A stretch of DNA of 64,000 nucleotides from an uncultured virus (IMG/VR IMGVR_UViG_3300020049_001894) (IMGVR_UViG_3300020049_001894), one strand, 5' to 3'; positions 36,855-63,649 are shown, counted from the first letter of the stretch. Numbers and translations: made by a program. The notes: a model not told the origin generated them from the letters alone.

Positions 36855-36859
36855 TTCAA

Positions 36860-36955
36860 TCTCCATCAAAGATTCATCGTAAAGAACTGCGACATGTTTG
36901 GGTGATGAGATCCAAACGAACCTGGCCGGGTCCTGTCGCAGCTGGTTCAATTATA
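36860..36955 (-). ncRNA. c4-like antisense/leader RNA upstream of the endonuclease
   Basis: TATAAT, closing stem CTGCGACA/TGTCGCAG, two inner hairpins, loop ATCTCATCA complementary to TGATG(G)AGAT over the RBS. Confidence 0.55.
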
Positions 36956-42127: not shown

Positions 42128-42819
42128 TTGCGGACTCCAGAATGACCGCTATATTTTTGGTGTCTTCCTATTGCTCCTGGGTTTGAAACCATGCCGCATT
42201 CTACGCATTCCACTCTTAAACTGTTAACCGTTGACGCCAACCCTCCTATCCTACCTATTTCAGAAGATTTAATGGGGTCTTTTCTTAAATTTGTCATAAA
42301 TTCTGAGGCTTTTTTAGACCTCTTAGCAGAAATCAACGGGTCTGCATTGTTTATCTCTGCTTGCGTTTTACCGCGATGTTGAAGTTTCTTAAGATAGTCA
42401 GAATCCTCATTTATCATGGCGCTCCGTGTCAAGATTGATTTAATCTTAGCTTCCTGTGAGAACCAACCAGTGCTGTTTTCTTTATGCTTTTTAAAACTCG
42501 CTTTTCCGCCTAATCTTGATATTTCTTCATCAGGACCGTCACCGCCATCTGTTAAATTCACAAGCGGCCCTAACCCTAAATCGCATCTACCGTAGTAAGC
42601 TATTAGGTCTATTTCAAGTTCAAGCGCGTACCATTCCTGGAGCCCTGTTTCAATAATCTCAACTGATACCCCGTACTTTTTAGCGACCCTCCAATAATAG
42701 GGGTTGTATGCTCTACCATATTCAGATAAATCATAGGCCCGTTTGCCCTTGCCTTTACCAACGTAGAAAATCTCACCAGTGGTGGCTTTACGGTGAACGT
42801 AAACGTAGAAGTCTGTCAT
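42124..42819 (-). CDS. GIY-YIG-like homing endonuclease with C-terminal C2H2-like finger
   Basis: FYVYVH..FYVGKG, NLTDGGDG; CVECG..GRHQK..H. Confidence 0.8.
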   Translation of the reverse strand: MTDFYVYVHRKATTGEIFYVGKGKGKRAYDLSEYGRAYNPYYWRVAKKYGVSVEIIETGLQEWYALELEIDLIAYYGRCDLGLGPLVNLTDGGDGPDEEISRLGGKASFKKHKENSTGWFSQEAKIKSILTRSAMINEDSDYLKKLQHRGKTQAEINNADPLISAKRSKKASEFMTNLRKDPIKSSEIGRIGGLASTVNSLRVECVECGMVSNPGAIGRHQKYSGHSGVRK

Positions 42820-42918
42820 TTGTCGCACCTCATCAGAGTGGAAGACCATCGTTAAAAGTGTGGCAGGCGATGATGAGTCGCTCTTCAGGCTGCAGACCCT
42901 AGCCACCTTTGAATTATA
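42820..42918 (-). ncRNA. c4-like antisense/leader RNA upstream of the endonuclease
   Basis: TATAAT, GTGGC/GCCAC closing stem, loop CTCATCA complementary to TGATGAG overlapping the GAGGT RBS. Confidence 0.55.
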
Positions 42919-43016
42919 GGGGGTCGCCTGCGCCGACCAGCGATTGTTTTTGCCAATCGGTAACCGGAAAATACGTTCAAAATACAATCGTGAACGCTGA
43001 AATCTCGACCTATAAT
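42913..43016. promoter_or_regulatory. Divergent promoter region with palindrome CGATTG-N7-CAATCG
   Basis: TATAAT on the minus strand (42913-42918) and plus strand (43011-43016); strand switch of the genome. Confidence 0.7.
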
Positions 43017-44999: not shown

Positions 45000-45193
45000 C
45001 TATCGAATGCTACAACTCTAAGTGCAAGAAGCACTCCTGCAACTCCGGAAATCCACGTGATGAAGGGCCGTTCTGTTTTGAAGCAGAATGCCAGTTCGAG
45101 CCACTGGTCCCTGCAGGTTACACCGCTGCTGAGCTTGAGCGCGACAACCCTTACAACGCTTGGATGTATGAAGACGGGACGGAAGCGCCATGA
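44996..45193 (+). CDS. Small Cys-rich protein
   Basis: Coupled by ATGA overlaps on both sides. Confidence 0.6.
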   Translation: MTIECYNSKCKKHSCNSGNPRDEGPFCFEAECQFEPLVPAGYTAAELERDNPYNAWMYEDGTEAP

Positions 45194-46203
45194 AAGATTA
45201 TAGGTTGAAAGAAAACAGGCTCGCGTACTTTACCGACCTGTACGACATGAACTTGATCCATGGGGTCATGCCAGGACTGGTTTATCTCTACATGCCCAAG
45301 TTGACCGAACACTTTGGCTGGAATGACGAACAGAAGCTGTGGTTCGCGACTATCAACGGCTTTACCCAATCACCCATCACATCTCTGCGTATATTCAATG
45401 AGTTACCCGCATGCAGAGTGACGGATAAGTTCGAGCAGTGGTTCAATGACCAATGGGAGACCCTGCACTTCGACAGCGACAGGCTCAAGAACAAGCGCAA
45501 CACCGTTGCAGGGCTCAAGAGCTATGCGCGGCTAGTGGCTGAGCATGGGGGATACCAGACCCTGCTCTGGGACGCGGGGCAGTCTTATTCCGACGCCTGG
45601 ACCAAGGCTAACTCGATACACTCGTTCGGGCGCCTGAGCACGTTCTCGTACCTTGAGTATGTGAAGATCATGGGCTTCGGGGCGCAGTGCACGGACCTGA
45701 TGTTTGAAGACCTTGACGGCTCACGCTCTCACCGTAACGGGGCGCTGTTCTTGAACGGCAAAGACGACCTCGTGTTTGACAAGCGGGCCGACAACGGGTT
45801 CGACGGAAAGTACGATAACTTCAAGCCAATGTGTGACTGGCTGCTGACGCAGTCCAATACCTTCCTGCGTGAGTTTTCCAGGCTACACCCTGACGTTCCT
45901 GACGTAGGCTATTTCACACTTGAAAGTTGCTATTGCCAATACAAAAACGGGTTCTTCAAACGGCGTTATCCCGGCGTCTACGCAGACATGGCATTGGACC
46001 GGATTAAGTGGTACGACGAACGAGGGTTTAGTGATTTGACAGAACCGTTTAAGGCTATCCGAGCTGCGCACCTGCCAATATGGCTGCGTGAGGAGTGTGA
46101 GGCTAAGCCGCTGGCGCGCGCCAAGAAAGCCGCCCAGTTCGCAGAGACAGGGCACCCGTACAGGGGTGAACACTTTTTGGAGGAAGTATGGCTGAAGAAC
46201 TAG
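45190..46203 (+). CDS. Amino acid:DNA transferase (aGPT-Pplase2-like), thymidine hypermodification
   Basis: PGLVY, LWFATING.TQ.P.TS, FGRLSTFSYLEY, SRSHRNG, TLES..C..K, RRYPGVY.D. Confidence 0.8.
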   Translation: MKDYRLKENRLAYFTDLYDMNLIHGVMPGLVYLYMPKLTEHFGWNDEQKLWFATINGFTQSPITSLRIFNELPACRVTDKFEQWFNDQWETLHFDSDRLKNKRNTVAGLKSYARLVAEHGGYQTLLWDAGQSYSDAWTKANSIHSFGRLSTFSYLEYVKIMGFGAQCTDLMFEDLDGSRSHRNGALFLNGKDDLVFDKRADNGFDGKYDNFKPMCDWLLTQSNTFLREFSRLHPDVPDVGYFTLESCYCQYKNGFFKRRYPGVYADMALDRIKWYDERGFSDLTEPFKAIRAAHLPIWLREECEAKPLARAKKAAQFAETGHPYRGEHFLEEVWLKN

Positions 46204-46427
46204 TAGAAGACTTCACACCTGAAGAAATGGCGGACTACGTTGTCTACGTCGAGAAGGTTGAAAATGTAATGGTTGTGCTTGACGACATGCTGGAGATCGG
46301 AACCACGCTTGAGGACCGTTTGTTGGTCATTGAAGCGGTGGCTAATGCGCTGGGAGTTGAAGCCGACTGCATGCAGCTCTGGCAACATGTGAACGGTCAA
46401 ATAAAAGAACAGGGGACACTGCAATGA
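46188..46427 (+). CDS. Small acidic hypothetical protein
   Basis: GGAGG RBS, coupled to neighbours. Confidence 0.6.
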   Translation: MAEELVEDFTPEEMADYVVYVEKVENVMVVLDDMLEIGTTLEDRLLVIEAVANALGVEADCMQLWQHVNGQIKEQGTLQ

Positions 46428-46999
46428 AACACGCCATACTACGCGTCTCAGGCACCTTCGGGTCCGGCAAGACCACTGCCGCACGGGACTTCCTCAAATA
46501 CCAGCACACCGCGCTGGAAAAGGACGGTAAAATTCAAGGCTACAAGATCGATGCGAGTTCGGTAGGGATTGCTGCCCCAATTTTTCTGTTGGGTTCCTAC
46601 AAGAACACGTGCGGAGGATGTGACGGCATAAAAACTCAAGCAGAGATTGCCGAACGTGCGCTCAAGGCGCACCCTCACGGGCATGTGCTGATGGAGGGGG
46701 CGTTGCTCTCAGGCTCTGGTATGGGCGGGGCAGTAACAATCGCCGTGGAGCCCACAGGCTGCGGAGTATACGCATTCCTGAACACCCCGCTGGAGGAGTG
46801 CATCACCCGTGTCAAGATTCGCCGTGCATCAGCCGGTAACGAGAAACCCTTCGACCCTAAGAACCTCATCAAGAAGTTTGAATCCGTGGTGGACTGCTAC
46901 CACAACATGAAGCGGGCCGGGTGCGACACGCGGCTGGTCGACTACACTGAAATACATCAACCGCTGCTGGATATTCTGAAGGAGTTTGAAAGTGCTTAG
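46424..46999 (+). CDS. P-loop nucleotide kinase associated with base modification
   Basis: GTFGSGKTT, GSY..TCGGCDGI, VLMEG. Confidence 0.8.
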   Translation: MKHAILRVSGTFGSGKTTAARDFLKYQHTALEKDGKIQGYKIDASSVGIAAPIFLLGSYKNTCGGCDGIKTQAEIAERALKAHPHGHVLMEGALLSGSGMGGAVTIAVEPTGCGVYAFLNTPLEECITRVKIRRASAGNEKPFDPKNLIKKFESVVDCYHNMKRAGCDTRLVDYTEIHQPLLDILKEFESA

Positions 47000-47237
47000 T
47001 TCGCAATTCAACGAATTGTTCTCCGAAATAAAGTTCACCACCTCGTACTTGTGTTCAGAATGCGGTGTTGAGGAACCGGGGACTACTGAGAGAGTGTCGA
47101 TAAACGTGCGAACTCCAACCGAGCTCGCCCGCGCGCTTGAAAATCGACGTCAGACCTCTGCTCATATGCCCAGGGGCTGGGGTTTTTCCGGTGTGTTCCG
47201 CTGCCCTGACTGTTTGAAGACTAACCATGTTGAATAA
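46986..47237 (+). CDS. Small Cys4 protein (start uncertain)
   Basis: CSEC...CPDC. Confidence 0.5.
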   Translation: MKVLSSQFNELFSEIKFTTSYLCSECGVEEPGTTERVSINVRTPTELARALENRRQTSAHMPRGWGFSGVFRCPDCLKTNHVE

Positions 47238-48150
47238 CCCCTATTCTCGCCCTTCCCCATGCCAGATAGCCAGCTGGCCAGGGTACCTGTACTTTGTGGC
47301 GGAGCGTGAGCGTATACGCTTGTTTAAGGACGCTGGGGACGTTGCTCCGTGGACCGACGACCCTATTCTGCAAAAATACAAGTTCACATGCGTGCGGCGC
47401 AAGGATGACCGAATGACAAAGTGGTTCATCAAGAACCTGATTGAGCCATACACCAATAGAACTGACCTCTGGTTCACACTGCTGGTGGCCCGGTTGATCA
47501 ACTGGCCTCCGATGATTCAACGGTTGATTGAACAAGGCGTGTTGCCGTGCTCACCGCATGAATTCGATGCCTCTCGCTTTGTGGCCACCATCGAGAACTA
47601 CAAAGACGGGGGTGGAAAAGTCTTCGGCGACGCTTACATGGTTTACCCAACCATGAAAGACCCAGGAGGAAACAAGTCTGAGAGCCTGGCAAAGTGGATC
47701 ATCGGCGACGTCATCAAGCATCATGATGCAATTAATTTCTCGCTGTGGGATGCCGATATGGGTCAGCCGTCAATAGCCAGATTTGTAACAGAACTCAGCG
47801 AGTGTTTCGGTATAAGTACTTTTATTGCTGGCCAGGTGGCAGCTGATTTGGCGCTGAGCCTGGGACACCTGGGAAACGCAGAGGATCTGTATACTTGGGC
47901 ACCGTTAGGCCCTGGATCGCAAGCCGGATTGAATTATTTGTTTGGTAAACCTGTCAGTGTGAAGTGGGACCAGTCCGACTTTAATTACGCGTTATTGGAT
48001 GCTAAAGAGCGTGTTGAAGAAGAACTTGGTCTGACTGACTTGACGCTACATTGCGTTCAAAATACATTCTGTGAGTACGGAAAGTATGCACGCACCGTGC
48101 TGGCGACCGGCAAACCGAAATCACTTTATAAACCACAGAAAGCATACTGA
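47227..48150 (+). CDS. 5-hmU DNA kinase-like helical protein (aGPT-Pplase1-like)
   Basis: ERERIR..PWTDDPILQKYKF..V.R.DDR, F.AGQVAADL, GPGS..GL, QN..CE..KY. Confidence 0.8.
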   Translation: MLNNPYSRPSPCQIASWPGYLYFVAERERIRLFKDAGDVAPWTDDPILQKYKFTCVRRKDDRMTKWFIKNLIEPYTNRTDLWFTLLVARLINWPPMIQRLIEQGVLPCSPHEFDASRFVATIENYKDGGGKVFGDAYMVYPTMKDPGGNKSESLAKWIIGDVIKHHDAINFSLWDADMGQPSIARFVTELSECFGISTFIAGQVAADLALSLGHLGNAEDLYTWAPLGPGSQAGLNYLFGKPVSVKWDQSDFNYALLDAKERVEEELGLTDLTLHCVQNTFCEYGKYARTVLATGKPKSLYKPQKAY

Positions 48151-48152
48151 TC

Positions 48153-49151
48153 ATGGAAATCGTTACCACAAACGCGAACACACTGTTCAGCGACGGATTT
48201 TGGAAATTGAAAACCAGCGGGGTCAAGTCTGATTCACGCAACGGTCCGGTTATTCGCATTGAGGAGCCTGTAATGATTACAGTGAACAACCCGACAGAAC
48301 GGGTGCTGTTTCATGGAGGCCGGGATGCCCCGCACATATTCCACCTGCTGGAAGCGGTGTGGGTTCTTGCTGGAAGGAATGATGTAGGATTCCTGCAGCA
48401 GTTTAACAGCAAAATAGGCTCGTATTCTGACAATGGTGAAACATTCAATGCCAGCTACGGCTTCAGAATGCGATATCACTTTGGGCAAGATCAACTGGCT
48501 TCAGTTATAGAGATTCTGCACAACGACCCAAACTCCCGTCAAGCTGTAATTCAGCTGTGGGATTCTGATGACCTGACCAAGAAAACCCTTGACAAATGTT
48601 GCAATACGCAGTTGACATTCGCCATAGTGAATGGAAAGATGAACCTAACCGTCAGCTGCCGAAGTAATGATTTTCTCTGGGGTAATTCAGGCGCCAATAT
48701 TGTTCACTTTTCGTTCATGTTGGAATTCGTTTCAGCGGCTGTCAGTGTTCCTGTTGGCAAGATGTACACGCTGATAAACAACTTACATCTTTACACTGAA
48801 CTTTACTCAGCTTCTCAGTACCTGGACAACCCTCCCAACCCGGAGGAGTACGACCTCTACGCCACCGGCCAAGTCACCCCCGAGCCTATAATGCAGGACA
48901 ATCGCTACCTGCAATTCCTGGATGACTGCGAGCGGTTCTGCGACAACCCCTTTGACCCGGATCGGTTGTATCACCACCCGTTCTTCCACAATGTAGCGCA
49001 CCCCATGGCGATGGTGTCTCGCACGCGTAAGCTAGGAATGGGAACCGGGGAGGAATGGGCCGCTAAGGTCACCGCACCCGACTGGCGCCGCGCTGCTCAG
49101 GACTGGATTGCCAGACGTGAGGCCAAAAAGCAATCGGCTTCTAAAGTCTGA
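48153..49151 (+). CDS. Thymidylate synthase family; probable dUMP hydroxymethylase
   Basis: SRNG, SRQAV, CCN (catalytic Cys), RSND, GANIVHFS (Asn, dUMP-type), NLHLY. Confidence 0.85.
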   Translation: MEIVTTNANTLFSDGFWKLKTSGVKSDSRNGPVIRIEEPVMITVNNPTERVLFHGGRDAPHIFHLLEAVWVLAGRNDVGFLQQFNSKIGSYSDNGETFNASYGFRMRYHFGQDQLASVIEILHNDPNSRQAVIQLWDSDDLTKKTLDKCCNTQLTFAIVNGKMNLTVSCRSNDFLWGNSGANIVHFSFMLEFVSAAVSVPVGKMYTLINNLHLYTELYSASQYLDNPPNPEEYDLYATGQVTPEPIMQDNRYLQFLDDCERFCDNPFDPDRLYHHPFFHNVAHPMAMVSRTRKLGMGTGEEWAAKVTAPDWRRAAQDWIARREAKKQSASKV

Positions 49152-49227
49152 TTGGCAAATACAATCGACAGCCTGCTTTTTGTGGGCTAAAATTCAAAGC
49201 ATAACTAGATAACTATTGAGATTATTC

Positions 49228-49716
49228 ATGAAAAAGCCTCTACTATTCTCCCAGGCCGGTTCCGAGGTCGTACGGTATCACACCCTAACCACTCTGGTCA
49301 GGGAAACCGTCGGTCACCACTCCCACATGGTGGCGATGATCTGCTACATATTGCATCCGCAGTGTTCTCGTGACCTACTGCTGGCAGCGCTTACGCATGA
49401 TCTCGCCGAGCAAGCCACGGGAGACATTCCGTCGACCGCTAAGCGCCTGTACGGTGTTGATGACCAGGTGTCCTCTCTTGAAGACTCCGTAATGCGGGCC
49501 GCTGGGCTGGAGTTTCCACACCTAACGGACTACGAGAAGCGTATTCTCAAGCTAGCCGACGTTGCGCAGGGCGCGTTGTACTGCGTGCGTGAAATGCAGC
49601 TGGGTAACCGCATGATGCGCAAAGTGTTTGACCGCTACATGTCCTACGCTGCGGACATGGGCCTGATTGGTGTTGAAGAAGAACTGTTTGAAATCATCCG
49701 AGGAGAATCACTGTGA
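49228..49716 (+). CDS. HD-domain (YfbR-like) nucleotide phosphohydrolase
   Basis: RYH, ETVGHHS, HDLAE..TGDIP, KLAD. Confidence 0.85.
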   Translation: MKKPLLFSQAGSEVVRYHTLTTLVRETVGHHSHMVAMICYILHPQCSRDLLLAALTHDLAEQATGDIPSTAKRLYGVDDQVSSLEDSVMRAAGLEFPHLTDYEKRILKLADVAQGALYCVREMQLGNRMMRKVFDRYMSYAADMGLIGVEEELFEIIRGESL

Positions 49717-54493: not shown

Positions 54494-54966
54494 TCGTCGC
54501 GATTGACCCTGGCCTTTCCGGCGCCATAGGGTTCCTCCGAAATGGCGTTTACGTAGCCGTAGAGGACATGCCGACCGTTGTCAAGGGGGTTGGCTCAGTC
54601 AAGCGCGAAGTCTCCCCTGCGGGGTTAAAACAGCTCATCCGTAAGCACCTAGTTGAAGGTGAGGAGGTTGTGGCAGTGTTGGAAAAGATAGGCCCTATGC
54701 CTGCCCAGGGCGTGTCATCAGTATTTAGTCTAGGAGACAGCTTCGGTTGCGCCAGGTCCATCCTGGTTAGCTTTGATTTTGAGCTACATCAAGTCACGCC
54801 GCAAGTATGGAAAAAGAGCTATAATCTAAGCTCGGACAAGGAGCAAGCGAGAGCCTTAGCTTCTCGTTTATTTCCAACTGCGCCTTTATACCTTAAAAAG
54901 CATGACGGTAGGGCAGAGGCGATTCTTATAGCTAAGTATCTGTATGAGTCAAAGTTCAAACGATAG
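54487..54966 (+). CDS. RuvC-like Holliday junction resolvase
   Basis: IDPGLSGA, LE, PQVWKK, DGRAEA. Confidence 0.85.
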   Translation: MLIVAIDPGLSGAIGFLRNGVYVAVEDMPTVVKGVGSVKREVSPAGLKQLIRKHLVEGEEVVAVLEKIGPMPAQGVSSVFSLGDSFGCARSILVSFDFELHQVTPQVWKKSYNLSSDKEQARALASRLFPTAPLYLKKHDGRAEAILIAKYLYESKFKR

Positions 54967-55687
54967 AATATATTATGTATATTCACATTCAAGAAATGAC
55001 ACGGGCGTGGTCTTTTATTATGGAAAAGGTAAAGGTGGCCGAGCTTATTACAAATATAGGAATAAATGGCACGACCACATAGTTAGCAAGGTTGGAATGA
55101 CTGTGACTATTTTATGCTCTGGGCTAACTGACGATGAAGCTAAGAAAGAAGAGATAAGATTGATACGTGAAGCCGCTAATTTAGGGTTTCCGCTAACTAA
55201 CCAAACCCCAGGGGGAGATGGTGTTGGAGGAGAAGCATCCCACCGAGGCGGGAGTAAGGCATTTGCTTTGAAACTAGGTATTCATGCCCCTGGCGTAGCT
55301 GCTAAAGGTGGAAGAGCGGGTGCCAAGACAATGATGGAGGCTAAGACTGGGTTGTTTGGTAGAAGTCCAGATGAGAGATCCAGAGACAGTAAAATTGCAG
55401 GACAGGTGGCGCATAATCGAAAGCTGGGTATATTTGCATATTCAGATGAAGAATTCAAAGAAGTGAGGTCACTGGGTGGTAAAAAAGCATCACGGATGCA
55501 GAAAGAAACTAAAACAGGAATATTTGGTCTTTCTAATGAAGAACTTTCTAAGAATGCGGTTAAAGCTGGTAAAGTTACCGGCTCTCAGCGTTGGAAATGT
55601 TTAGTATGCGGAATGACAACAACTCCTGGCAATTTAGGCAGGCACCAGAAAGACAGGGTGCACTCAGGTAAAGAGCGAATAGCGTGA
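54944..55687 (+). CDS. GIY-YIG-like homing endonuclease with internal repeats and C2H2-like finger
   Basis: YYVYSH..FYYGKG..RA, LTNQTPGGDG; K(L/T)G(I/L)(F/H) repeats; CLVCG..GRHQK..H; AT-rich. Confidence 0.75.
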   Translation: MSQSSNDRIYYVYSHSRNDTGVVFYYGKGKGGRAYYKYRNKWHDHIVSKVGMTVTILCSGLTDDEAKKEEIRLIREAANLGFPLTNQTPGGDGVGGEASHRGGSKAFALKLGIHAPGVAAKGGRAGAKTMMEAKTGLFGRSPDERSRDSKIAGQVAHNRKLGIFAYSDEEFKEVRSLGGKKASRMQKETKTGIFGLSNEELSKNAVKAGKVTGSQRWKCLVCGMTTTPGNLGRHQKDRVHSGKERIA

Positions 55688-56281: not shown

Positions 56282-56728
56282 ATGACCCGCAAACGCAGCA
56301 ACTACCGCCCCCGTGCCGTCATCAAAGACGTCATGAGCTGGATCAAGCAGGGCCACGAACCCTTGACTGCGGACACAGACACCCACATGCGGATCGTTAC
56401 CCGCATACACGGCTCGGTGGTGGCCTTGCAAGGGGGCACTGCTGATGTCCACGACCTCAACGCACTTATCAGCGCGAGCAATATGGCGACGGGCTACAAG
56501 AACATCGACCTTGGACGCGACTATGAGCAAGAGATACGCGCAGGTGCACATGCCGTGGCTGCTGTGCGCGAGAGGTTGGTCAAGTGGCGCAAGGTGCAGG
56601 CCACTTCTACTGAGGTCGAAGCCGTCTCGCTCTTGGTGCAGATATGTCAAGCCCAGCTTGAGGCCAGCACGCGGGCTGATTTTGAGAAAGCAAGCGCCAT
56701 TGTGGCTCGGAACGGATGTGATGTATGA
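56282..56728 (+). CDS. Hypothetical phage protein
   Basis: MTRKRSNYRPR start; helical. Confidence 0.7.
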   Translation: MTRKRSNYRPRAVIKDVMSWIKQGHEPLTADTDTHMRIVTRIHGSVVALQGGTADVHDLNALISASNMATGYKNIDLGRDYEQEIRAGAHAVAAVRERLVKWRKVQATSTEVEAVSLLVQICQAQLEASTRADFEKASAIVARNGCDV

Positions 56729-56850
56729 CCACCCGACTAGCAGTTGCATTCGTTATCGGCATCCCCGTGCTGTGGGCCTGCTGGCTTGCATACAAGCTCG
56801 CTGAGTACGCGGTTCGGGGGTGGTATTGGATTAAAGGAGAAAAGACATGA
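56725..56850 (+). CDS. 41-aa membrane peptide
   Basis: Own translation: MTTRLAVAFVIGIPVLWACWLAYKLAEY...; ATGA overlaps. Confidence 0.5.
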   Translation: MTTRLAVAFVIGIPVLWACWLAYKLAEYAVRGWYWIKGEKT

Positions 56851-56942
56851 CAACAGGAGCCGAGCAATTGGCAAACGAACTCGTCGGTGGCTATTCTGAG
56901 TCTACATGGCCGCTCAGTGGTCGCCGCTTTTAGGAGTTGGTT

Positions 56943-57161
56943 ATGAGTGAACTACTAGAGGCCGCCAGAGCGGTCATTACCTGGCATGAACGTTGGCCTA
57001 AATTAGCGCCGATTCAGTGCCCACGCATGCCAGATGGGAGGGCACTTGCCTGCCGCTGCAACACGATTTGCTGCCATGAGCGTCTGCGCTTGGCAATCGC
57101 CACGGAAGACAGCATGCAACATAACGCCGGAGACAAGCCGCCGCAGGTCGGCCTTGATTGA
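56943..57161 (+). CDS. Cassette-borne Cys-rich hypothetical protein
   Basis: AGGAG RBS; ATG within GTTATG; ends HNAGDKPPQVGLD inside the attC-like site. Confidence 0.65.
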   Translation: MSELLEAARAVITWHERWPKLAPIQCPRMPDGRALACRCNTICCHERLRLAIATEDSMQHNAGDKPPQVGLD

Positions 57162-57171
57162 CCTGTTAAAT
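57119..57171 (-). repeat. attC-like site (53 bp)
   Basis: ACATAAC GCCGG AGACAAGCCG CC GCA GG T CGGCCTT G ATT GACCT GTTAAAT. Confidence 0.85.
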
Positions 57172-57194
57172 GACAAACCTTTGAACGGAGAAAG

Positions 57195-57401
57195 ATGATG
57201 CACACGATACCAAAACACTTGGGCGAATTTACCGCACTGGCCCAAGGTAAAACCGATTACACAGTGCAAGTGATACACACCAACCCCGAGTCGTATGGCG
57301 ACTTGATGACGATCTGCGCGACAGAGGGAGCGGTGTACATCACACGCGAGCAGGCGAAAGCGTTTTTTGGGTTGGTTGAACCTTTGCCATTTAACGCATA
57401 G
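57195..57401 (+). CDS. Cassette-borne hypothetical protein
   Basis: GGAGA RBS; ends LPFNA. Confidence 0.7.
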   Translation: MMHTIPKHLGEFTALAQGKTDYTVQVIHTNPESYGDLMTICATEGAVYITREQAKAFFGLVEPLPFNA

Positions 57402-57442
57402 CTGCCCGGTGCGAAGCATCCGCGCCGAGCGTTGAGTTAAAC
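57389..57442 (-). repeat. attC-like site (54 bp)
   Basis: ATTTAAC GCATA GCTGCCCGG TGC GAA GCA T CCGCGCC G AGC GTTGA GTTAAAC. Confidence 0.85.
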
Positions 57443-57470
57443 CGAATTTTTACCGGAGAAGGAATAGAAC

Positions 57471-57665
57471 ATGAAAGACAAGCTGATTGCAGCAGGCGTG
57501 AAAAACTTGCGCGAATTTGGCTACCCAAAATGCAACGCAGAAAACATTTTGACCGACATGGTTTACAAGGCATTTTTTGTCTCAATGCTTAAAGACAACA
57601 AGGGGCACTCGCCACAAGTAGACAAGGCCATTGACGAATTGTTGACGATCTGCAATGCGGTTTAA
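57471..57665 (+). CDS. Cassette-borne hypothetical protein
   Basis: Stop is the TAA of GTTTAAC. Confidence 0.75.
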   Translation: MKDKLIAAGVKNLREFGYPKCNAENILTDMVYKAFFVSMLKDNKGHSPQVDKAIDELLTICNAV

Positions 57666-57746
57666 CGCAGAAGTGAAAGGCGACACCAAATGACCACCGA
57701 ACAACCAACCCCGCCGCCAGTCGTCCTTTCGACTGCCCTGTTAAAC
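57660..57746 (-). repeat. attC-like site (87 bp) with a start codon in its loop
   Basis: GTTTAAC GCAGA AGTGAAAGG CGAC [loop] GTCG T CCTTTC G ACT GCCCT GTTAAAC. Confidence 0.85.
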
Positions 57747-57974
57747 CCTTTGCCGTGCCCATTTTGCGGCCATGTTGGGCTTGACTTCCGTGAAGGCACC
57801 ACGTTCCGCTGGATCATCGCGAAGTGCGGCGGCTGCGGTGCAACACGCGGAGAGACGTGCATACAGACCCTAGGCCAAGGGACAAAAGACGAGTGGATGC
57901 AGGAAGCGCAACAAGATGCCATTGCAATCTGGAACACGAGGTTTAACGCAGAAATAACCGGCTTGTCCGGTTGA
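57690..57974 (+). CDS. Lar-like restriction-alleviation family zinc-finger protein (cassette-borne)
   Basis: LPCPFCG...CGGCGA...AIAIWNTR signature. Confidence 0.75.
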   Translation: MTTEQPTPPPVVLSTALLNPLPCPFCGHVGLDFREGTTFRWIIAKCGGCGATRGETCIQTLGQGTKDEWMQEAQQDAIAIWNTRFNAEITGLSG

Positions 57975-57988
57975 TTGCCCGGTTATCG
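57941..57988 (-). repeat. attC-like site (48 bp, minimal)
   Basis: GTTTAAC GCAGA AATAACCGG CTTG T CCGGTT G ATT GCCCG GTTATCG. Confidence 0.85.
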
Positions 57989-58014
57989 GGCTGGAACAGA
58001 AATAGGAGATTGAA

Positions 58015-58311
58015 ATGCTGAATCCAGAAGACTCAAACATGGCAGCGAATGCAATTTGTCATGCCGCACTAATGTGTCAAGAGGCGTTCCGCCAAGCCAC
58101 TCACGGGTACGGAACCCCAAGCGCAATCTACAAGCCAAAGTTGTTTGTAGACGGAAACCAGTGGTGCGCGCTGCTTGGGGAAAACATCCAAGTAGGCGTG
58201 TGCGGGTTTGGATCCACGCCACACCATGCAATGGCTGCGTTTGACCGAGCGTGGTTTGCGCCTCTGCCAGATAACGCCGGAAATAAGCCGCCGCAGGTCG
58301 GCCTTGATTGA
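58015..58311 (+). CDS. Cassette-borne hypothetical phage protein
   Basis: DGNQWCALLGENIQ.GV.GFG.TP; ends DNAGNKPPQVGLD. Confidence 0.75.
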   Translation: MLNPEDSNMAANAICHAALMCQEAFRQATHGYGTPSAIYKPKLFVDGNQWCALLGENIQVGVCGFGSTPHHAMAAFDRAWFAPLPDNAGNKPPQVGLD

Positions 58312-58321
58312 CCTGTTATGT
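58269..58321 (-). repeat. attC-like site (53 bp)
   Basis: AGATAAC GCCGG AAATAAGCCG CC GCA GG T CGGCCTT G ATT GACCT GTTATGT. Confidence 0.88.
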
Positions 58322-58334
58322 GACGGGGTGAGCC

Positions 58335-58715
58335 ATGCCATACAAAGACAAAGCGAAAAAGGTAGCGAATGGGAAAGCCTACTACGCGGCCAACAAAGAG
58401 CGCATAGACGCACGAAACGCCGCGTATAGGGCTTTGCATCTTGACGAGGAACGTCAGCGGCAAATCGCATGGCGAACGGAAAACAGAGACAGAAGCAACG
58501 CAATAAAAGCGAAGCACAAGGCCGCAAACCCTGACAAGGTTGCCGCCCAAGCCAAGAAGGAACGCGACACGCTGGCCGATGGGTATGTGAGAAAAAAGAT
58601 AGCGCAGGTGTACGCAATACCTGCGGCGCAGATACCGGAGCCGCTGGTAGGCGCACACCGTGAATTATTAAAACTCAAACGGGAGATATGGAAATGCAGA
58701 ACTGTGACGAACTAA
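58335..58715 (+). CDS. Basic helical protein (first gene of a two-gene cassette)
   Basis: Lys/Arg-rich YYAANKER-type repeats. Confidence 0.7.
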   Translation: MPYKDKAKKVANGKAYYAANKERIDARNAAYRALHLDEERQRQIAWRTENRDRSNAIKAKHKAANPDKVAAQAKKERDTLADGYVRKKIAQVYAIPAAQIPEPLVGAHRELLKLKREIWKCRTVTN

Positions 58716-58909
58716 GGGCAGAACTGGCGCAGATCTTTGCGCAGCTAAAGGACGGTGCAATTAAGCCGAGCGAAGCCGCCGAACTGGCGAACCTAGCCGG
58801 GAAGATGATCGGCAGCGCGAAGGTGCAGGTTGAGTATTACGCGCTGCGAAAAGAACAGCCGCGTATAGAGTGGCTGGAGTCACATAACGCAGAGGTGAGT
58901 GGCGCGTAG
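58688..58909 (+). CDS. Hypothetical protein (second gene of a two-gene cassette)
   Basis: GGAG RBS; ends HNAEVSGA in the attC-like site. Confidence 0.7.
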   Translation: MEMQNCDELRAELAQIFAQLKDGAIKPSEAAELANLAGKMIGSAKVQVEYYALRKEQPRIEWLESHNAEVSGA

Positions 58910-58935
58910 CGTCCCGCTCGACTGCCCTGTTAAAC
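58882..58935 (-). repeat. attC-like site (54 bp)
   Basis: ACATAAC GCAGA GGTGAGTGG CGC GTA GCG T CCCGCTC G ACT GCCCT GTTAAAC. Confidence 0.85.
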
Positions 58936-58952
58936 AATACTGAAAGAAAGCA

Positions 58953-59129
58953 ATGTTCTCAATACATTTTCACAAGCCTCCGCAATGGCACTGGATGCCG
59001 AGCACACACCAAGTGGTGCAGTTTCTGCCAAACAGCAAGTATTGCCACGGGTGCTGCGTCTATCAGTGGCTTTTCATCGGCATTGAATTACGCCTCAAAG
59101 TTTTCGAGCAATCGAGGCTTGAGTGGTGA
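58953..59129 (+). CDS. Cassette-borne 58-aa protein (below the ORF-track cutoff)
   Basis: Own translation: MFSIHFHKPPQWHWM...SRLEW; fills the cassette exactly. Confidence 0.55.
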   Translation: MFSIHFHKPPQWHWMPSTHQVVQFLPNSKYCHGCCVYQWLFIGIELRLKVFEQSRLEW

Positions 59130-59130
59130 T

Positions 59131-59181
59131 GTTTAACGCAGAAATCAGCGCCCGTAGGTGCGATGGATTGCCCGGTTATCG
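59131..59181 (-). repeat. attC-like site (51 bp)
   Basis: GTTTAAC GCAGA AATCAGCGC CC GTA GG T GCGATG G ATT GCCCG GTTATCG. Confidence 0.82.
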
Positions 59182-59205
59182 GGCTGGAACAAATATAGGA
59201 GAGAA

Positions 59206-59301
59206 ATGATGAAACTTGTATGTATACACCGATGGACACTGATGACCGATTACCCGCCGCACTATTCGCGGTGCAGTAAATGCGGAGCAACTAAATCATG
59301 A
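59206..59301 (+). CDS. 31-aa zinc-finger-like peptide (cassette-borne)
   Basis: AGGAG RBS; CIHRW...CSKCG. Confidence 0.55.
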   Translation: MMKLVCIHRWTLMTDYPPHYSRCSKCGATKS

Positions 59302-59447
59302 AACCCAACATTTATTCAAAGATCATTTACATCGTTCTTTTCGGTTTCTTCGCTTCGCCATTTCTGCTGATCGGCCTGCTTGCCGGTGCTATATGGATTT
59401 CGCTTAGGACGGGCTGGTGGTGGGCAGAAAAGTTCGGCAACTTGTAA
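59298..59447 (+). CDS. 49-aa membrane peptide (cassette-borne)
   Basis: ATGA overlap; IIYIVLFGFFASPFLLIGLLAGAIWISL. Confidence 0.55.
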   Translation: MKPNIYSKIIYIVLFGFFASPFLLIGLLAGAIWISLRTGWWWAEKFGNL

Positions 59448-59451
59448 TGCC

Positions 59452-59580
59452 AGATAACGCGATGTATACCGCAAAACCTGCAATATAACGTGGCAACTTG
59501 CAGCATAAAAACAGCCTCTAGCCCATGCCAAATAAGGCTAGAGTGCTCATCTAAAAATAGCACGAAAGGATGTAGAAATG
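59452..59580 (-). promoter_or_regulatory. attI-like site plus conserved block, copy 2
   Basis: Minus strand GGTATAC-ATCGC-GTTATCT; homologous to 1876-2004. Confidence 0.6.
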
Positions 59581-59973
59581 AACCCAACAAAAATTGAGAT
59601 AATGAACCCAACAAAAATTAAGATCGTCGTCCAGGGCGTACCTGTGCCCACTGACGACGCTTGGGTAGTAACACGGCATGAGGATATTGCACTGGTAGTC
59701 TTGGACATGCAAACTAAATGGTGTGTACTCGGAGCAACCTCCGGCGTATACGACAGGGAATCAAAGCTGTACACGCCATGTGTGCACATCTCCCCTACGG
59801 ATCGGGCCATGCAAATCGTTGCAGGGCGTGACATGACTGATGACGACATGGACACAGAAATTGCATTCCCAGAATTCCAAGGCTGGGATATAGCTGTGTC
59901 GGATTGCCAGCGGTACACGCTGAGTGTGTGCTTCACAAAACGGGCCGGAACAAACGAAGGAGATAAGCAATGA
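59578..59973 (+). CDS. Hypothetical protein with a duplicated 8-codon N-terminus
   Basis: MNPTKIEI MNPTKIKI; C-terminal part matches 1..221. Confidence 0.7.
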   Translation: MNPTKIEIMNPTKIKIVVQGVPVPTDDAWVVTRHEDIALVVLDMQTKWCVLGATSGVYDRESKLYTPCVHISPTDRAMQIVAGRDMTDDDMDTEIAFPEFQGWDIAVSDCQRYTLSVCFTKRAGTNEGDKQ

Positions 59974-60062
59974 GCAAACAATCGAACGCCAAAGAAGCCC
60001 AGCAATATGTGGCAAAAGCACCCCCGCAAACGTGCGGGGTGTGCAGGAATTGCGTGCCCGTG
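59753..60062 (+). repeat. Long direct repeat, copy 2 of 1-310
   Basis: Direct alignment by eye. Confidence 0.95.
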
Positions 60063-60221
60063 ATTGGTGCAGTGCTGATCTATAAAAACCCTAAGTCAAT
60101 CGCCGATGGGACGCATTACGTGGATGCTCAGGTGGCCCAGAAGTGCGGCATTGGCGGCTTCGCGGTGAAGAAAATGGGCACTTGCCGCATGTGGTTGCCA
60201 CTTCTGCCAGATAACGACTGA
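59970..60221 (+). CDS. Cys-rich hypothetical protein (eroded cassette)
   Basis: CGVCRNC...CGIGGFAVKKMGTC; ends LPDND in the attC-like site. Confidence 0.7.
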   Translation: MSKQSNAKEAQQYVAKAPPQTCGVCRNCVPVIGAVLIYKNPKSIADGTHYVDAQVAQKCGIGGFAVKKMGTCRMWLPLLPDND

Positions 60222-60268
60222 AATAACCGGCACGCTTTAGCGTGTCCGGGTTGATTGACGGGTTAGCC
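60209..60268 (-). repeat. attC-like site (60 bp)
   Basis: AGATAAC GACTG AAATAACCGG CACGC TTTA GCGTG T CCGGGTT G ATT GACGG GTTAGCC. Confidence 0.85.
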
Positions 60269-60335
60269 GTGCGCCCGATGAATGCACGGCGACTGATGAG
60301 GATTTGAACATGACCGCAGTGGCCTGGGAACAGAA

Positions 60336-60569
60336 ATGAACTACATCACAAAGACGACGAGCGTGACAGTGCTGCCAGAAGGCGAGCCGCTGTACTCTGA
60401 AATGGCAACTGAAATCAAGATGACAGACGATGAAGGCGGCTGGGAGTTTGTTGAGGTGGTGCAGAGTGGCAGAACGGATGTCGGTAAGATATGCATTGCC
60501 CCCGAAGAGTGGCCTGCAATCCGCGATGCGGTTGACTCGATGATTAAACAATGTGGGGGCGCGAAATGA
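60336..60569 (+). CDS. Hypothetical phage protein
   Basis: DDEGG.EFVEV.Q..I.PEEWP..R.A motif. Confidence 0.7.
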   Translation: MNYITKTTSVTVLPEGEPLYSEMATEIKMTDDEGGWEFVEVVQSGRTDVGKICIAPEEWPAIRDAVDSMIKQCGGAK

Positions 60570-60862
60570 CGCCTCGCCAACGAGAAATCCTTGAAGCCAT
60601 GCGCCACGGGCCAATGACAGCAGTTGAGCTGTCAAAGACTACCAGCATAGGCCGCAGTTGGATGAGCGATCTGCTGGCCGCAGTACACAAAGCTGGGCTG
60701 ACTGAGCGCTACGAGCGCAAGCCCGGCGCTACGGGCAGCAACTGGGAGTACGTCTACAGCTTGTCTGACGCTGGGCGTAAAGCGATTGGGCTGGATACGA
60801 GCGGGAACAACCCGTTTTTATGGCGTAGCTTTAAGCAGCCTGTGGCGATGGGGGCGATATGA
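60566..60862 (+). CDS. Winged-HTH protein; paralog of 2002..2289
   Basis: Shares MTPRQREILE and GNNPFLWR..KQPVAMGA. Confidence 0.75.
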   Translation: MTPRQREILEAMRHGPMTAVELSKTTSIGRSWMSDLLAAVHKAGLTERYERKPGATGSNWEYVYSLSDAGRKAIGLDTSGNNPFLWRSFKQPVAMGAI

Positions 60863-60934
60863 TGAATCAATTTTCAAAAGGGTTTATGCGATGATTTACA
60901 TTCTAATCATGGTGATTTTTATTCTGGCTGACCT

Positions 60935-61156
60935 ATGACCACTCTACCCGACCACCTCAAGGCTCTGGAGTCTCGCTTGGGACTCACGGAGCCACAAGCG
61001 GCTAGGTACCTCGGGGTGCCTGTCACCACTTATCGCAAGTGGCGCAATGGGACACGGAAGCCGGGGAGTGTGGTGTATCGAGTGTTGTTTCTGGTGCAGT
61101 TGATTGAACGGGCTGCGCCAGATGCTCACAGGATTTTATTGGAGGATGTGAAATGA
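60935..61156 (+). CDS. XRE/Cro-like HTH protein
   Basis: LGLTEPQAARYLGVPVTTYRKWRNG.RKP. Confidence 0.8.
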   Translation: MTTLPDHLKALESRLGLTEPQAARYLGVPVTTYRKWRNGTRKPGSVVYRVLFLVQLIERAAPDAHRILLEDVK

Positions 61157-61158
61157 AC

Positions 61159-61179
61159 AAAGCCCCTCGCGGGGCTTTT
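61159..61179. terminator. Bidirectional terminator between convergent genes
   Basis: AAAGCCCC-TCGC-GGGGCTTTT. Confidence 0.75.
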
Positions 61180-61180
61180 C

Positions 61181-63649
61181 TCATTGTCCTCTGACTATTG
61201 GCCGACCATGCGGTGACAGTCGGTATATCTCCTCCAGTTGCCGCTGCTTCGCCTGAATCACACCTTCACGGTACTCTTGGAACATGGACATGAGAGCCGG
61301 GTTAATCGCCCATTCGGCATGGTGCTGGTGTTCCCGTGATCCGTCATCCACTCGCATAACCCAGCAGGCTTTCTCCATAGCGCTCATGGCTTGGATAACA
61401 GTGGTATCGTTTTGGAACGAGTTGCCCATCAGTTGCCGACGACCTGAGTTCTTGATTGTGGTCAGGGTCAGTGTGCCCTTGTCGCAGTTGTGGATGATGT
61501 AGTCGGTAAGCCACATATCGAAGTTGCTGACCTCACCGATCTCCCCAAGGGCGTACTTGAATGCCGGGATCAGGTAGGAGCGCACGAGGTGGACTACTCG
61601 CTCCACGACACCCTCCTCTACTTCGGTGCTGAACGGACTCTCTATCAGGTGGAACACCAGCACCAGACGGCCTACGGTGCCCTCCAGCTTGCCGTAGGCG
61701 GTCATGAACGAGTCAGTGGCTTGGAGTAGACGCTCGTCCTGCTTGCGCCCCTCGTACCACATTTGAAACTCGCGGAACTTAACATGTGCCCCGGCGCTCA
61801 GGCGGTATGTGGTCGGATTAAGCGCATAGACTATGCGCAGAGTTTGCTCCCATTGGTCCTTGTTCGTCAGGTAATCGGGAACCGGGTTATTCAGTTTGGT
61901 CTTGGTGTGGTGCAGCACAGCAGGCAGGAACCGCTGGATCAGACCATCGGTGGCCATGGCCTTGAGATGCTCCTTGAACACGGCTGGCTGGCAGTTGCCG
62001 TAGATCGAGACGGCGAAGTTGTCACAGTGGATGCTCCCTGTACCAACCCGGTCCATGTCATACGATTCAGACTCGTAACCTACGACCCATGCAGAACGAT
62101 CCTCGCCGCCCATCTTGTCGGTCAGCTTGCGAATCCATGAGTTCATCTCGTCGAGGTAGCACAGCAGCCCACGGGGGCGCTCTGCTGCGTGACGCACGAG
62201 CTTCTGACTGGTGATGTCCGAAACGGTGATCTTGACCGGCACTGGCTGCGGGGGCAGATCGGGGATCGGTGGGGGTTCACCACCCATCAGGAACTCAGGG
62301 GTTGCTGCGTACTCAAGCGATGCCTTCTTTGCCGCTGCGTAGCTGGCCTCTTTCAGTTCCCAATCGAGTAGGTCTTTACGAAACCGGGGGTGATCCTCGC
62401 CCTCCAAGTCCTTGAGTAGCGTCATCATGGGGCGGCTACCCGGCGACTTCTTGTCCCCTGGATCACCGATGGTCATTAGCCACAGGATGGGAGGGACGCG
62501 GAAGCCCTCCATTAGCTCCAGCCGTGTCCGGGCATCCACTACCCCACAGACAGCAGCCAGACCAGCCCAGAGGGGAACCAAGGGGTCGCAACCCACCGCG
62601 CTACTGATCTCAGACGAGCGGGTTGCCAGTACCTTTGGGACAAGGGTCATGTCCAGTTCAGGAGGAGTTGGGCGCATCCCGCTCAATACGGAGCCGGGAG
62701 CCGTGGGGATGGTGCCCGTGGCCTTGAACAGTCCTGCGATGTCGGGCATGGGGCGCACCCACCCGTGATCCCGCGCGATGTGAAACAAGGTGCCTACCTT
62801 GACACTGTTCACCTTGTCCGACTTAAAGCTGTTCCACTGTGTCAGCATCTCCCGCTCACCGGGGTACTTGGCTTCGCTCTGCTTGCTCCACTCGTTCCAC
62901 AGGTACAGTGCTTGGTCAAGCTGGTTTGTCTGTGTACCTGCCCACTGTAGCGCCATGCCCACGTTCACCCACTCGTCACGGGAGCAGTCAGCAGGGATGT
63001 GCTCCACAGCCTTGCGAATATCTTCCCATGTGGCACCCAGCGCATCCGTGGTGCCGTCGATCCGCACACGCTCTTGATTCAGGAGTCCTTGCCACAGTGC
63101 GAGGACAGACTCTGGAATCTGGGGGAGGCGCATCCAGTTACCACGACCTGCCCAGCGATAGGGTTGATTGGTCTGAGGGTGGATGCTTGGTGGCAAGACA
63201 TCCTGCACCGTGGCACCGTTCGATGTGGCACAGCGCAACTCGTACACCGTGGCCCCGCCGATGATGATCTTCTTGCTAGGTAACACGACACCCGGAGGCA
63301 TGGCATAGAGTAGCTTACCGTGCCCTGCCCTCCCGCTGTCCACGATGACCGCATCCTGTGCATCATAGAGAGCGTTCAGGTCTACACCGTGACCCAGCAA
63401 CACGTTGACCGCTACACCCCAATCGTCTATGTCCAGCGCCATCGTTCCGCTGTAAGCATGTGCCAACCCGATACCGAAGCCGGGGGGTAGCTCTGTCTGT
63501 GACTTGAGGGTGTTCTGTTGCAGGTTCCACCCGATAGTACGTGGACCTTTGGACGAGGGTGGGATCGGTACAAGTGCCCAGCCGTGTCGGAGGTATGCGT
63601 CTACGCTTGCGGGGTGCTGGGCAACTTGGGGGTGAAGGACTGCGTTCAT
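61181..63649 (-). CDS. Second primase: Prim-Pol, PriCT-2-like and DUF3987/YfjI-like helicase domains
   Basis: YLRHGWALVPIP, ALDID, VLPPSIHP, WVNVGMAL, GDPGDKKSP, DEM, DGLIQRF. Confidence 0.85.
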   Translation of the reverse strand: MNAVLHPQVAQHPASVDAYLRHGWALVPIPPSSKGPRTIGWNLQQNTLKSQTELPPGFGIGLAHAYSGTMALDIDDWGVAVNVLLGHGVDLNALYDAQDAVIVDSGRAGHGKLLYAMPPGVVLPSKKIIIGGATVYELRCATSNGATVQDVLPPSIHPQTNQPYRWAGRGNWMRLPQIPESVLALWQGLLNQERVRIDGTTDALGATWEDIRKAVEHIPADCSRDEWVNVGMALQWAGTQTNQLDQALYLWNEWSKQSEAKYPGEREMLTQWNSFKSDKVNSVKVGTLFHIARDHGWVRPMPDIAGLFKATGTIPTAPGSVLSGMRPTPPELDMTLVPKVLATRSSEISSAVGCDPLVPLWAGLAAVCGVVDARTRLELMEGFRVPPILWLMTIGDPGDKKSPGSRPMMTLLKDLEGEDHPRFRKDLLDWELKEASYAAAKKASLEYAATPEFLMGGEPPPIPDLPPQPVPVKITVSDITSQKLVRHAAERPRGLLCYLDEMNSWIRKLTDKMGGEDRSAWVVGYESESYDMDRVGTGSIHCDNFAVSIYGNCQPAVFKEHLKAMATDGLIQRFLPAVLHHTKTKLNNPVPDYLTNKDQWEQTLRIVYALNPTTYRLSAGAHVKFREFQMWYEGRKQDERLLQATDSFMTAYGKLEGTVGRLVLVFHLIESPFSTEVEEGVVERVVHLVRSYLIPAFKYALGEIGEVSNFDMWLTDYIIHNCDKGTLTLTTIKNSGRRQLMGNSFQNDTTVIQAMSAMEKACWVMRVDDGSREHQHHAEWAINPALMSMFQEYREGVIQAKQRQLEEIYRLSPHGRPIVRGQ

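Follow-up and report, generated by a model that had tools for sequence, protein, structure and literature searches.

Clusters of attC sites, which bound integron gene cassettes, have already been published from virulent phages, and five of the six phage attC sites tested were recombined by the bacterial integrase IntI1 (Qi 2023, Front Microbiol, PMC9892861). In the sections of that study drawn on here, phage attI sites are described within complete or fragmentary integrons, and not as orphan sites in virulent phages. Here we describe a stretch of 64,000 nucleotides (nt) from an uncultured virus (IMGVR_UViG_3300020049_001894; the whole stretch analysed is called the window), which carries small cassettes in two groups, array A near its start and array B towards its end (Table 1). 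We consider it likely that a phage genome here carries an integron-type cassette array that was assembled at an attI-like site and lacks an integrase gene. As in the published phage arrays, attC-bounded cassettes occupy a phage genome without intI. Unlike the arrays in the sections of Qi 2023 compared here, arrays A and B each terminate in an attI-like site with homology to the attI found in chromosomal integrons of candidate hosts, the open reading frames (ORFs) all lie on the attC bottom strand, and the attC family spans unrelated phages and a host array.

The other close relatives are the sedentary chromosomal integrons of Betaproteobacteria, represented by Rhodoferax antarcticus (locus L117) and a Rhodoferax metagenome-assembled genome (MAG; locus L105). 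They share with the window the attI core, the direct repeats, the box sequences, the cross-cassette complementarity and the crossover position relative to attI. They differ from it in that the phage lacks intI, its ORFs are antisense to the canonical direction, and the host attC sites, of about 87 nt, form a sequence family separate from the short phage attC. Some cassettes of chromosomal integrons, such as those of toxin-antitoxin systems, are reverse-oriented. Toxin-antitoxin cassettes are described, in the part of the work cited, as carrying their own promoter (Richard et al. 2024, PMC13108822). Like these, the ORFs of the window are not read from an integron cassette promoter; unlike them, the whole array is reversed and read by phage transcription, and Pfam and PHROG scans found no toxin-antitoxin family in the window cassettes. 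Our literature search on phage-borne attI or reversed phage cassettes found only Qi 2023, and the search on reverse-oriented cassettes found nothing on phages. The orphan host-type attI, the uniformly reversed ORFs, the phage-specific short-attC family and the presence of its members inside a host array therefore look new.

Array B (57119-59458) consists of seven imperfect hairpin sites set between small co-directional ORFs, each ORF with its own ribosome-binding site (RBS). In each site, a body of 34-73 nt separates the left box nnnTAAC from the right box GTTAnnn, and each array ends in a lone left box without a hairpin behind it (59452-59458 in B, 1876-1882 in A). TAACG and GTTA are invariant in all 10 aligned sites, and a TAAC...GTTA pattern recovered all 11 sites, eight in and after array B and three in array A. 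This pattern replaced a strict RYYYAAC/GTTRRRY regular expression that missed most sites, so the imperfect palindromes can be said to be flanked by attC boxes in a relaxed form. The sites are short, with 42-54 nt between TAAC and GTTA and one of 81. An nhmmer profile built from 10 sites found the untrained eleventh (B3, E 2.9e-5) and nothing else in the 64 kb at E<1. Profiles were used and no covariance model was built because RNAalifold on a MAFFT alignment gave 7 pairs only, with the inner stems misaligned; an energy-thresholded scan for TAAC-GTTA hairpins was discarded as non-discriminating (26 hits, mostly inside genes). An earlier note on this DNA gave the coordinates 57165-59458. The array reaches past them, with a first full site at 57119-57171, a further site at 60209-60268 and array A at 918-1882.

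The starting observation of that note was that the right box of one hairpin complements the left box of the next. All nine box pairs that it quoted are in the sequence at their places and with their match counts, and the weak matching within single sites is equally real (4/7 at 57941, 58882 and 59131). Over box positions 4-13 of 10 cassettes (three in A, seven in B), complementarity across cassettes reached 76/100, as against 43/100 within the same site; shuffled pairings averaged 48.0 (standard deviation, sd, 5.9), and 1 in 100,000 reached 76. Outside the 7-mer, at positions 8-13, the counts were 41/60 across cassettes and 20/60 within sites, again with 1 in 100,000 shuffles. The pattern was replicated outside the window in 17 adjacent site pairs of other loci, from which L094 and L096 had been dropped as near-duplicates of L091: 71/102 positions paired across cassettes and 58/192 within sites (0/100,000 permutations). 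Such complementarity is a classical hallmark of integrons, by which cassette boundaries were first defined, and is not in itself new.

Circularising each cassette in silico at AA|C, a check that the earlier note proposed, improved hairpin folding relative to both the linear sites and permuted pairings. Joined at AA|C of the left box, the 10 cassettes had a summed minimum free energy (MFE) of -139.3, compared with -107.6 for the linear sites and a mean of -115.9 (sd 5.8) for permutations, of which 25/100,000 were as low. Eight cassettes joined at G|TT of the right box gave a summed DNA MFE of -113.1 (permutations: mean -89.8, sd 5.7; 14/40,320 as low). The linear sites themselves fold poorly, with z values against shuffles of -0.7 to -2.6 and one of +0.3, as expected if every linear site is a chimera of two cassettes. 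The hairpins could instead be only transcription terminators or RNA-stability elements, duplicated with their genes; they do lie between co-directional ORFs, and attC sites are thought to contain weak terminators, as stated in part of Qi 2023 (PMC9892861). Elements of that kind should not fold as weakly as shuffled sequence or pair across cassettes and not within sites, and they would leave the attI junctions and the cassette-precise deletions described below unexplained. We regard this explanation as already contradicted and leave it next to no probability.

Complementarity alone cannot distinguish which of the two boxes is cut, and the polarity of the sites rests on other evidence. According to the portion of Nivina 2016 used here (PMC5027507), the AAC triplet and the extrahelical bases (near positions 16, 20 and 23/24) occupy opposite arms of the recombined bottom strand of attC. 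On the + strand, surplus unpaired bases fall on the 3' arm in 25 of 35 unique bodies, with three equal. Host-type attCs served as a control, their top strand being known from intI-attI, and in 8 of 10 detections the sign was reversed. In the L105 array, two phage-type cassettes share attC polarity with eight host-type attCs, and their ORFs are antisense. Across 27 viral loci bearing the attI motif, all 22 phage-type attC hits lie opposite to the attI top strand. Three independent lines, namely arm geometry, co-orientation with the host array and attI orientation, thus identify the coding strand of the cassette ORFs, the + strand, as the canonical bottom strand of attC. It follows that crossover occurs at TAA|C of the left box, that an attC lies 5' of its ORF, and that a cassette, on the + strand, begins with the C of one left box and ends with the TAA of the following one.

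The coding strand agrees with this layout. An RBS and start codon follow the right box within 80 nt at 42/53 unique sites, as against 2/53 in a mirror test, which was used in place of a longest-ORF heuristic that proved uninformative in other loci (11 vs 9). All cassette ORFs of the window are directed towards attI, antisense to the canonical integron direction and along phage early transcription. The integron arrangement of a cassette promoter reading from attI into sense cassettes is thus not found here, as the ORFs face attI (no promoter-directed search was made).

The earlier note had the circle opened at G/TT in R'. Because the + strand is the canonical bottom strand, this labelling must be corrected, the canonical R' being the complement of the left TAAC box; the AA/C check that it proposed nevertheless placed the crossover rightly, at TAA|C. 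Taken literally, its labels describe a cluster in canonical orientation, in which an ORF would precede its own attC and crossover would take place at G|TT in the right box (+ strand). Such a cluster would account for the joint change of the X4 ORF and the following hairpin body in L092, with homology back at 58313, for one contig joint from right box to right box (57164 to 57436), and for the improved folds on G|TT circularisation. It conflicts with the arm geometry and its control, with the co-orientation with host attCs in L105, with the 22/22 hits antiparallel to the attI top strand, and with the fact that the left box alone is joined to attI. The best-supported contig joints (sides of 32-248 nt) moreover all run from left box to left box, and the right-box joint has a side of 25. 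We therefore consider a canonical orientation very unlikely.

The half sites at 1876-1882 and 59452-59458 are, as judged by alignment, putative cassette/attI junctions. On the - strand, about 70 nt past each lone left box can be aligned with the stretch that separates intI from the first cassette in R. antarcticus, the Rhodoferax MAG and Aalborgicola. Two direct repeats are common to them, as is a core GCAGGTTTTGC-N7-ATYRC immediately ahead of G|TTA. The best blastn-short match of the R. antarcticus attI in the window is 59477-59462 (16/16, E 0.001) and the second best 1918-1877 (83% of 42 nt, E 0.022). The two best matches in 64 kb thus coincide with both half-site junctions, which argues for their identity as attI. 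The R. antarcticus junction was set independently, 108 nt from the intI start, and the ends of its first cassette are complementary at 9/10 positions; in three genomes, the predicted reference attI regions lie close to the integrase gene, 108-171 nt from the intI starts. The attI motif was found at 27 viral loci, of which 17 were judged by eye to have full attI-like context, in two subtypes, and 10 were dismissed as fortuitous matches to AT-rich genes. A tblastn search found no IntI homologue within 3.5 kb of any of the 27, and none holds a host-type attC. At the junction of array A with attI (1876-1882, - strand), the window reads GTTAAATGGCAG and a 99%-identical record (L088/L132) reads GTTATCTGGCAG; the three-base difference is confined to the box, and GTTATCTGGCAG fits the other end of the cassette better than GTTAAATGGCAG.

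The window is a phage genome. Pfam and PHROG scans found large and small terminase, an SU10-type adaptor, a portal-like protein and lysozyme, together with replication genes for a family-A DNA polymerase, a Prim-Pol primase, a Cas4-like exonuclease and a RuvC-like resolvase. No tyrosine or other recombinase family, including Phage_integrase, was found among the 84 window ORFs scanned. PF00589 was absent from both related genomes searched (G002, a near-identical 62.4-kb record rated 100% complete, and G003, a 91% relative) and from all five other contigs examined. No integrase gene was found beside the array, where a complete integron would have one. With eight sites in and after B, three in A and no integrase nearby, the region has the make-up of a cluster of attC sites lacking integron integrases (CALIN), and differs from a bare CALIN by having attI.

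We infer that the catalyst is the integron integrase of the host, acting in trans during infection, and that the phage probably borrows this enzyme to swap accessory genes. A phage-encoded recombinase of unknown family might act in place of host IntI, and the unannotated ORF 59578-59973, which lies beside attI and is transcribed away from it like intI, would be one candidate. No phage record examined has a tyrosine recombinase, this ORF has no Pfam or PHROG family, and it has a copy at the window start, while its beginning recurs beside attI in L099. An enzyme of the phage's own is harder to reconcile with an attI homologous to sites beside bona fide intI genes, with attC geometry of the kind recognised by IntI, and with the residence of the cassettes in bacterial arrays too. 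A different gene (2002-2289) moreover stands beside attI in array A, and the 131 residues of the candidate hold no detectable catalytic family. We accordingly assign this alternative little probability.

The site family extends well beyond the window. A site-derived pattern matched 12 viral contigs, each with 1-5 profile hits, whose hairpin bodies are 94-100% identical to B2, B4, B5 or B6 and whose adjacent ORFs are unrelated. The attC-bearing contigs represent different kinds of phage (siphovirus-like with Gp157, SSB and LydA-holin; with a CI-type repressor; with portal_3/Mu-F; and others). Searched against one genome per bacterial species, a tighter pattern matched six contigs, from R. antarcticus, the Rhodoferax MAG, Candidatus Aalborgicola lynettensis, a Betaproteobacteria MAG and two doubtful bins, and the profile confirmed a short attC in five of them. 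An integron integrase (TIGR02249, 445-453 bits, cut-off 265) is present in three of the four betaproteobacterial genomes holding this attC family. A hidden Markov model of host-type attC had no hits in the window and phage loci, and the R. antarcticus locus L104 is without host-type attC. A crude hairpin filter run on L104, L107, L097 and L117 added nothing. Several partial integrase-like fragments were seen near the intact R. antarcticus intI (L117 5031-5783 and nearby stretches of the contig), and a B9-like short attC lies on the bottom strand about 5 kb from that gene.

Locus L105 of the Rhodoferax MAG provides the closest link between phage and host. It is a typical chromosomal cassette array, with + strand ORFs (GNAT and others) and eight host-type attCs of about 87 nt, all on the + strand. 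Amid these, two short phage-type attC cassettes sit at exact box boundaries, and one of them encodes a homologue, at 74% identity, of window ORF 59970-60221 and has the same attC body as B4. The genome encodes IntI over the cut-off on another contig, so that phage-type cassettes reside in an integron array of an integrase-bearing genome.

We also compared the array with natural populations. Sequencing runs were matched by words of 56700-60300, and contigs (Logan) of four runs were aligned at 90% likeness; uncovered parts are uninformative. Twenty runs from 12 studies, mostly wastewater, hold 20-32% of these words, and none of 24 runs holds half of them; the exact array was thus not found elsewhere. 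Relative to the window, some contigs show skips of 271, 941 and 1222 nt, in each case exact whole cassettes from left box to left box, within a 9-nt ambiguity. The first skip removes X2 (57389 to 57661, 9 ambiguous nt) in two runs (run labels X1 and X3), the second cassettes X4 and X5 (57943 to 58885) in the run labelled X3, and the third cassettes X3, X4 and X5 (57662 to 58885) in the run labelled X5, with a shorter side of 248 nt and no letters between. In one contig, the X1 ORF is followed by 483 foreign letters and then by attI, a replacement between 57396 and 59455. These box-to-box skips, the attI-like site at both arrays and the occurrence of the cassette type inside a bacterial integron array support the proposal of the earlier note that it was site-specific crossover in the TAAC box, by way of a circular or excised form, that put the units in place, rather than homologous recombination or the duplication of terminators. 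The attC family is very abundant in wastewater and aquatic habitats: at 57910-58030, 58273-58393 and 60209-60300, attC words reach depths of thousands to about 16,000 in four wastewater and aquatic runs, compared with tens for ORFs. Many attC variants in metagenome runs differ solely in the terminal loop.

The hairpins might also be conserved linkers, with modules swapped mainly by homologous recombination between co-infecting phages and no site-specific recombinase involved. Bodies are 94-100% identical between unrelated phages with adjacent ORFs that are unrelated or 28% identical, bodies assort with different boxes, and the phage encodes a Cas4-like exonuclease and a RuvC-like resolvase, all of which would suit such exchange. 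Homologous exchange can preserve the complementarity of the ends of ORF units, but cannot create it, and it leaves unexplained the attI-like junctions, the residence in a bacterial integron array at exact box boundaries and the coincidence of joints with boxes. We find it highly unlikely as the main process, although homologous recombination may contribute to homogenising hairpin bodies. Given the reassortment of bodies and boxes, the joint replacement in L092 and a pair of 28%-identical ORFs between matching attCs, bodies must also undergo gene conversion, or exchange must sometimes take place at the other box. Evolution of the hairpins seems to be concerted and decoupled from that of the ORFs. 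In almost all cases, GTTATCGGGC stands directly after a B4-like body.

Ordinary integron chemistry provided in trans is the likeliest mechanism, and may be pictured as follows. The unit on the + strand is a C, an imperfect hairpin body, GTTAnnn, an RBS, a small ORF and nnnTAA. The infected cell's IntI would fold attC sites from the + strand and excise units as circles. In a circle, the nnnTAA end is joined again to the C-body-GTTAnnn of the same unit, which gives a complete long hairpin, consistent with the circularised folds; this reunion of both ends explains why the right box of one site pairs with the left box of the next. Circles would enter double-stranded attI (59458-59530; 1882-1950) by AA|C cleavage, phage replication would then resolve the product, and the newest cassette would adjoin attI. 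Being reversed, the ORFs are read with phage early genes and would lie antisense to the cassette promoter in a host array.

A broader and more tentative model, which we find nearly as easy to accept as to doubt, is that unrelated phages of Comamonadaceae (Rhodoferax-like hosts, common in wastewater) carry an orphan attI mimicking that of the host's chromosomal integron and, with the host integrase acting in trans, take up, rearrange and trade cassettes from a phage-specific short-attC pool. The reversed genes would be expressed in the phage and silent in the host array, and the host integron would serve as engine and reservoir for accessory or counter-defence genes. Few cassette functions are known; candidates for counter-defence are the Lar-like protein of X3 in the window (ORF 57690-57974; PF14354, 34.6 bits, cut-off 28.6; phrog_599) and the DNA methylase and RNA ligase cassettes of L107, a related phage-like contig that also has an HNH nuclease cassette. 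In our main reading, too, the cassettes would hold accessory or counter-defence genes of the phage, with host arrays as a reservoir.

Several observations weigh against this account or parts of it. Arm asymmetry is opposite in 7/35 bodies (MFE folds are noisy), and one R. antarcticus attC (L117 3447-3501), inspected by eye, has a single bulge on the top strand. The strict RYYYAAC...GTTRRRY consensus fits only a few sites, and the attI similarity is short (E 0.001 and 0.022). Site B9 and the ORFs at 59578-60221 lie on the 'integrase side' of attI and are not accounted for. Hairpin bodies occur with several different left boxes; in L092, the X4 ORF and the hairpin body behind it differ together, with homology resuming at 58313, two bases before the B5 right box; and in L095 (4001-4358, against window 57944-58320), an ORF 28% identical to the X4 protein lies between attCs 98-100% identical to B4 and B5. 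Some weaker contig joints fall at the right box or at a body border (57164 to 57436, side 25; 58925 to 57162, side 34; 59178 to 59455, side 24), and Logan contigs display recombination products, not events. One of the four candidate host genomes is without a full IntI, and the host is proposed only on the strength of attC and attI sequences held in common. From its gene content, the phage probably has DNA hypermodified at T (a thymidine hypermodification set at 45190-49716 with an amino acid:DNA transferase, PF18724, a 5-hmdU DNA kinase, PF18723, a thymidylate-synthase homologue and an HD/YfbR-like phosphohydrolase), and this might hinder host integrase on the GTT/AAC cores. Finally, arrays A and B may be two alleles joined by assembly and not two loci of one genome, because the window ends are diverged copies and a related record breaks at the array edges. 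The copies are mosaic (1-310 and 59753-60062, 95%; 1872-2016 and 59448-59590, 79%; 1999-2282 and 60563-60855, 69%), and the related 62.4-kb record stops at about 511 and about 56887 of the window, the edges of the cassette regions, which suggests strain heterogeneity breaking or mis-joining assemblies there.

Integrons are regarded as bacterial devices, and the arrays described here, if rightly read, would explain a hypervariable phage accessory region and name a route of gene flow between phages and host integrons. Chromosomal integrons have been described, in the portion of the preprint cited, as stockpiling anti-phage defences (bioRxiv 10.1101/2024.07.02.601686). If phages keep a host-type attI and a cassette pool of their own, the integron machinery would serve both sides of the phage-host conflict. 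The system is directly testable by recombining phage attI with phage attC in the presence of a Rhodoferax-type IntI, and the reversed orientation would offer a simple rule separating phage-adapted from host cassettes in metagenomes. Cassette arrays do not appear to be a trait of the whole phage lineage, as no attC was found at E<=0.01 in 80 loci surrounding genes related, in most cases at about 60% identity, to the Cas4-like exonuclease or within the first 12 kb of G003. A blastn search of the array against a phage collection gave no match.

Table 1. Recombination sites and cassettes of arrays A and B (window positions; attC sites recognised by TAAC...GTTA pattern and nhmmer profile as noted).
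Feature	Position	Strand	Remarks
attC A1	918-971		bulged G16/C17 and T24 on + strand
cassette XA1	924-1240	+	ORF 989-1240, stop = TAA of box
attC A2	1235-1286		pattern, profile
cassette XA2	1241-1594	+	ORF starting at 1311
attC A3	1589-1642		pattern, profile
cassette XA3	1595-1881	+	ORF 1667-1912
attI-like site, array A	1882-1950	-	alignment and blastn-short match
attC B1	57119-57171		left box 57119-57125, right box 57165-57171; nhmmer E 9e-12
cassette X1	57125-57394	+	C, B1 body, right box, RBS and ORF 57195-57401, the last 7 nt of the ORF in the next cassette
attC B2	57389-57442		pattern, profile, fold
cassette X2	57395-57665	+	271 nt; ORF 57471-57665, stop = TAA of next left box
attC B3	57660-57746		long terminal loop holding RBS and start of next ORF; profile E 2.9e-5
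cassette X3	57666-57946	+	ORF 57690-57974, Lar-like restriction alleviation protein
attC B4	57941-57988		body recurs at 94-100% identity in other phage contigs and the Rhodoferax MAG
cassette X4	57947-58274	+	ORF 58015-58311
attC B5	58269-58321		90% identical to B1
cassette X5	58275-58887	+	ORFs 58335-58715 and 58688-58909; 91% and 83% amino acid identity to L092
attC B6	58882-58935		pattern, profile
cassette X6	58888-59136	+	ORF 58953-59129
attC B7	59131-59181		pattern, profile
cassette X7	59137-59457	+	adjoins attI; small ORFs 59158-59301 and 59298-59447
attI-like site, array B	59458-59530	-	- is the canonical top strand; crossover between 59458 and 59457
attC B9	60209-60268		isolated, far side of attI; profile E 3.5e-10

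The boxes and hairpins also touch the coding sequences. Two cassette ORFs use the TAA of a box as stop codon (57663-57665 and 1238-1240). The ORFs ending at 57401, 57974, 58311, 58909 and 1912 extend 7-37 nt into the hairpin or attI of the neighbour, so that their C-terminal tails depend on the neighbour; B1 and B5 supply the same C-terminal tail to two unrelated ORFs. At 57977-57993, 59170-59186, 1274-1290 and 60257-60272, the end of the hairpin body pairs with an extension of the right box, placing GTTAT, GTTAA or GTTAG in the loop of a small hairpin.

Elsewhere in the window, an Rfam scan at gathering thresholds and a tRNA scan gave no matches. A second Prim-Pol/PriCT_2/DUF3987 primase gene (61181-63649, -) lies beside two small helix-turn-helix genes in the region 60551-63649; it is unlike the gene at the matching place in the other copy (2409-4190), and the region may come from another variant or another element. 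Three paralogous homing-endonuclease-like genes (NUMOD3, phrog_314/15526) were found at 36141-36950 (-), 42124-42987 (-) and 54944-55687 (+), two of them sharing 68% nucleotide identity over about 290 nt. A GroES-like co-chaperonin gene (Cpn10, PF00166; 22949-23401, -) lies amid the structural genes.

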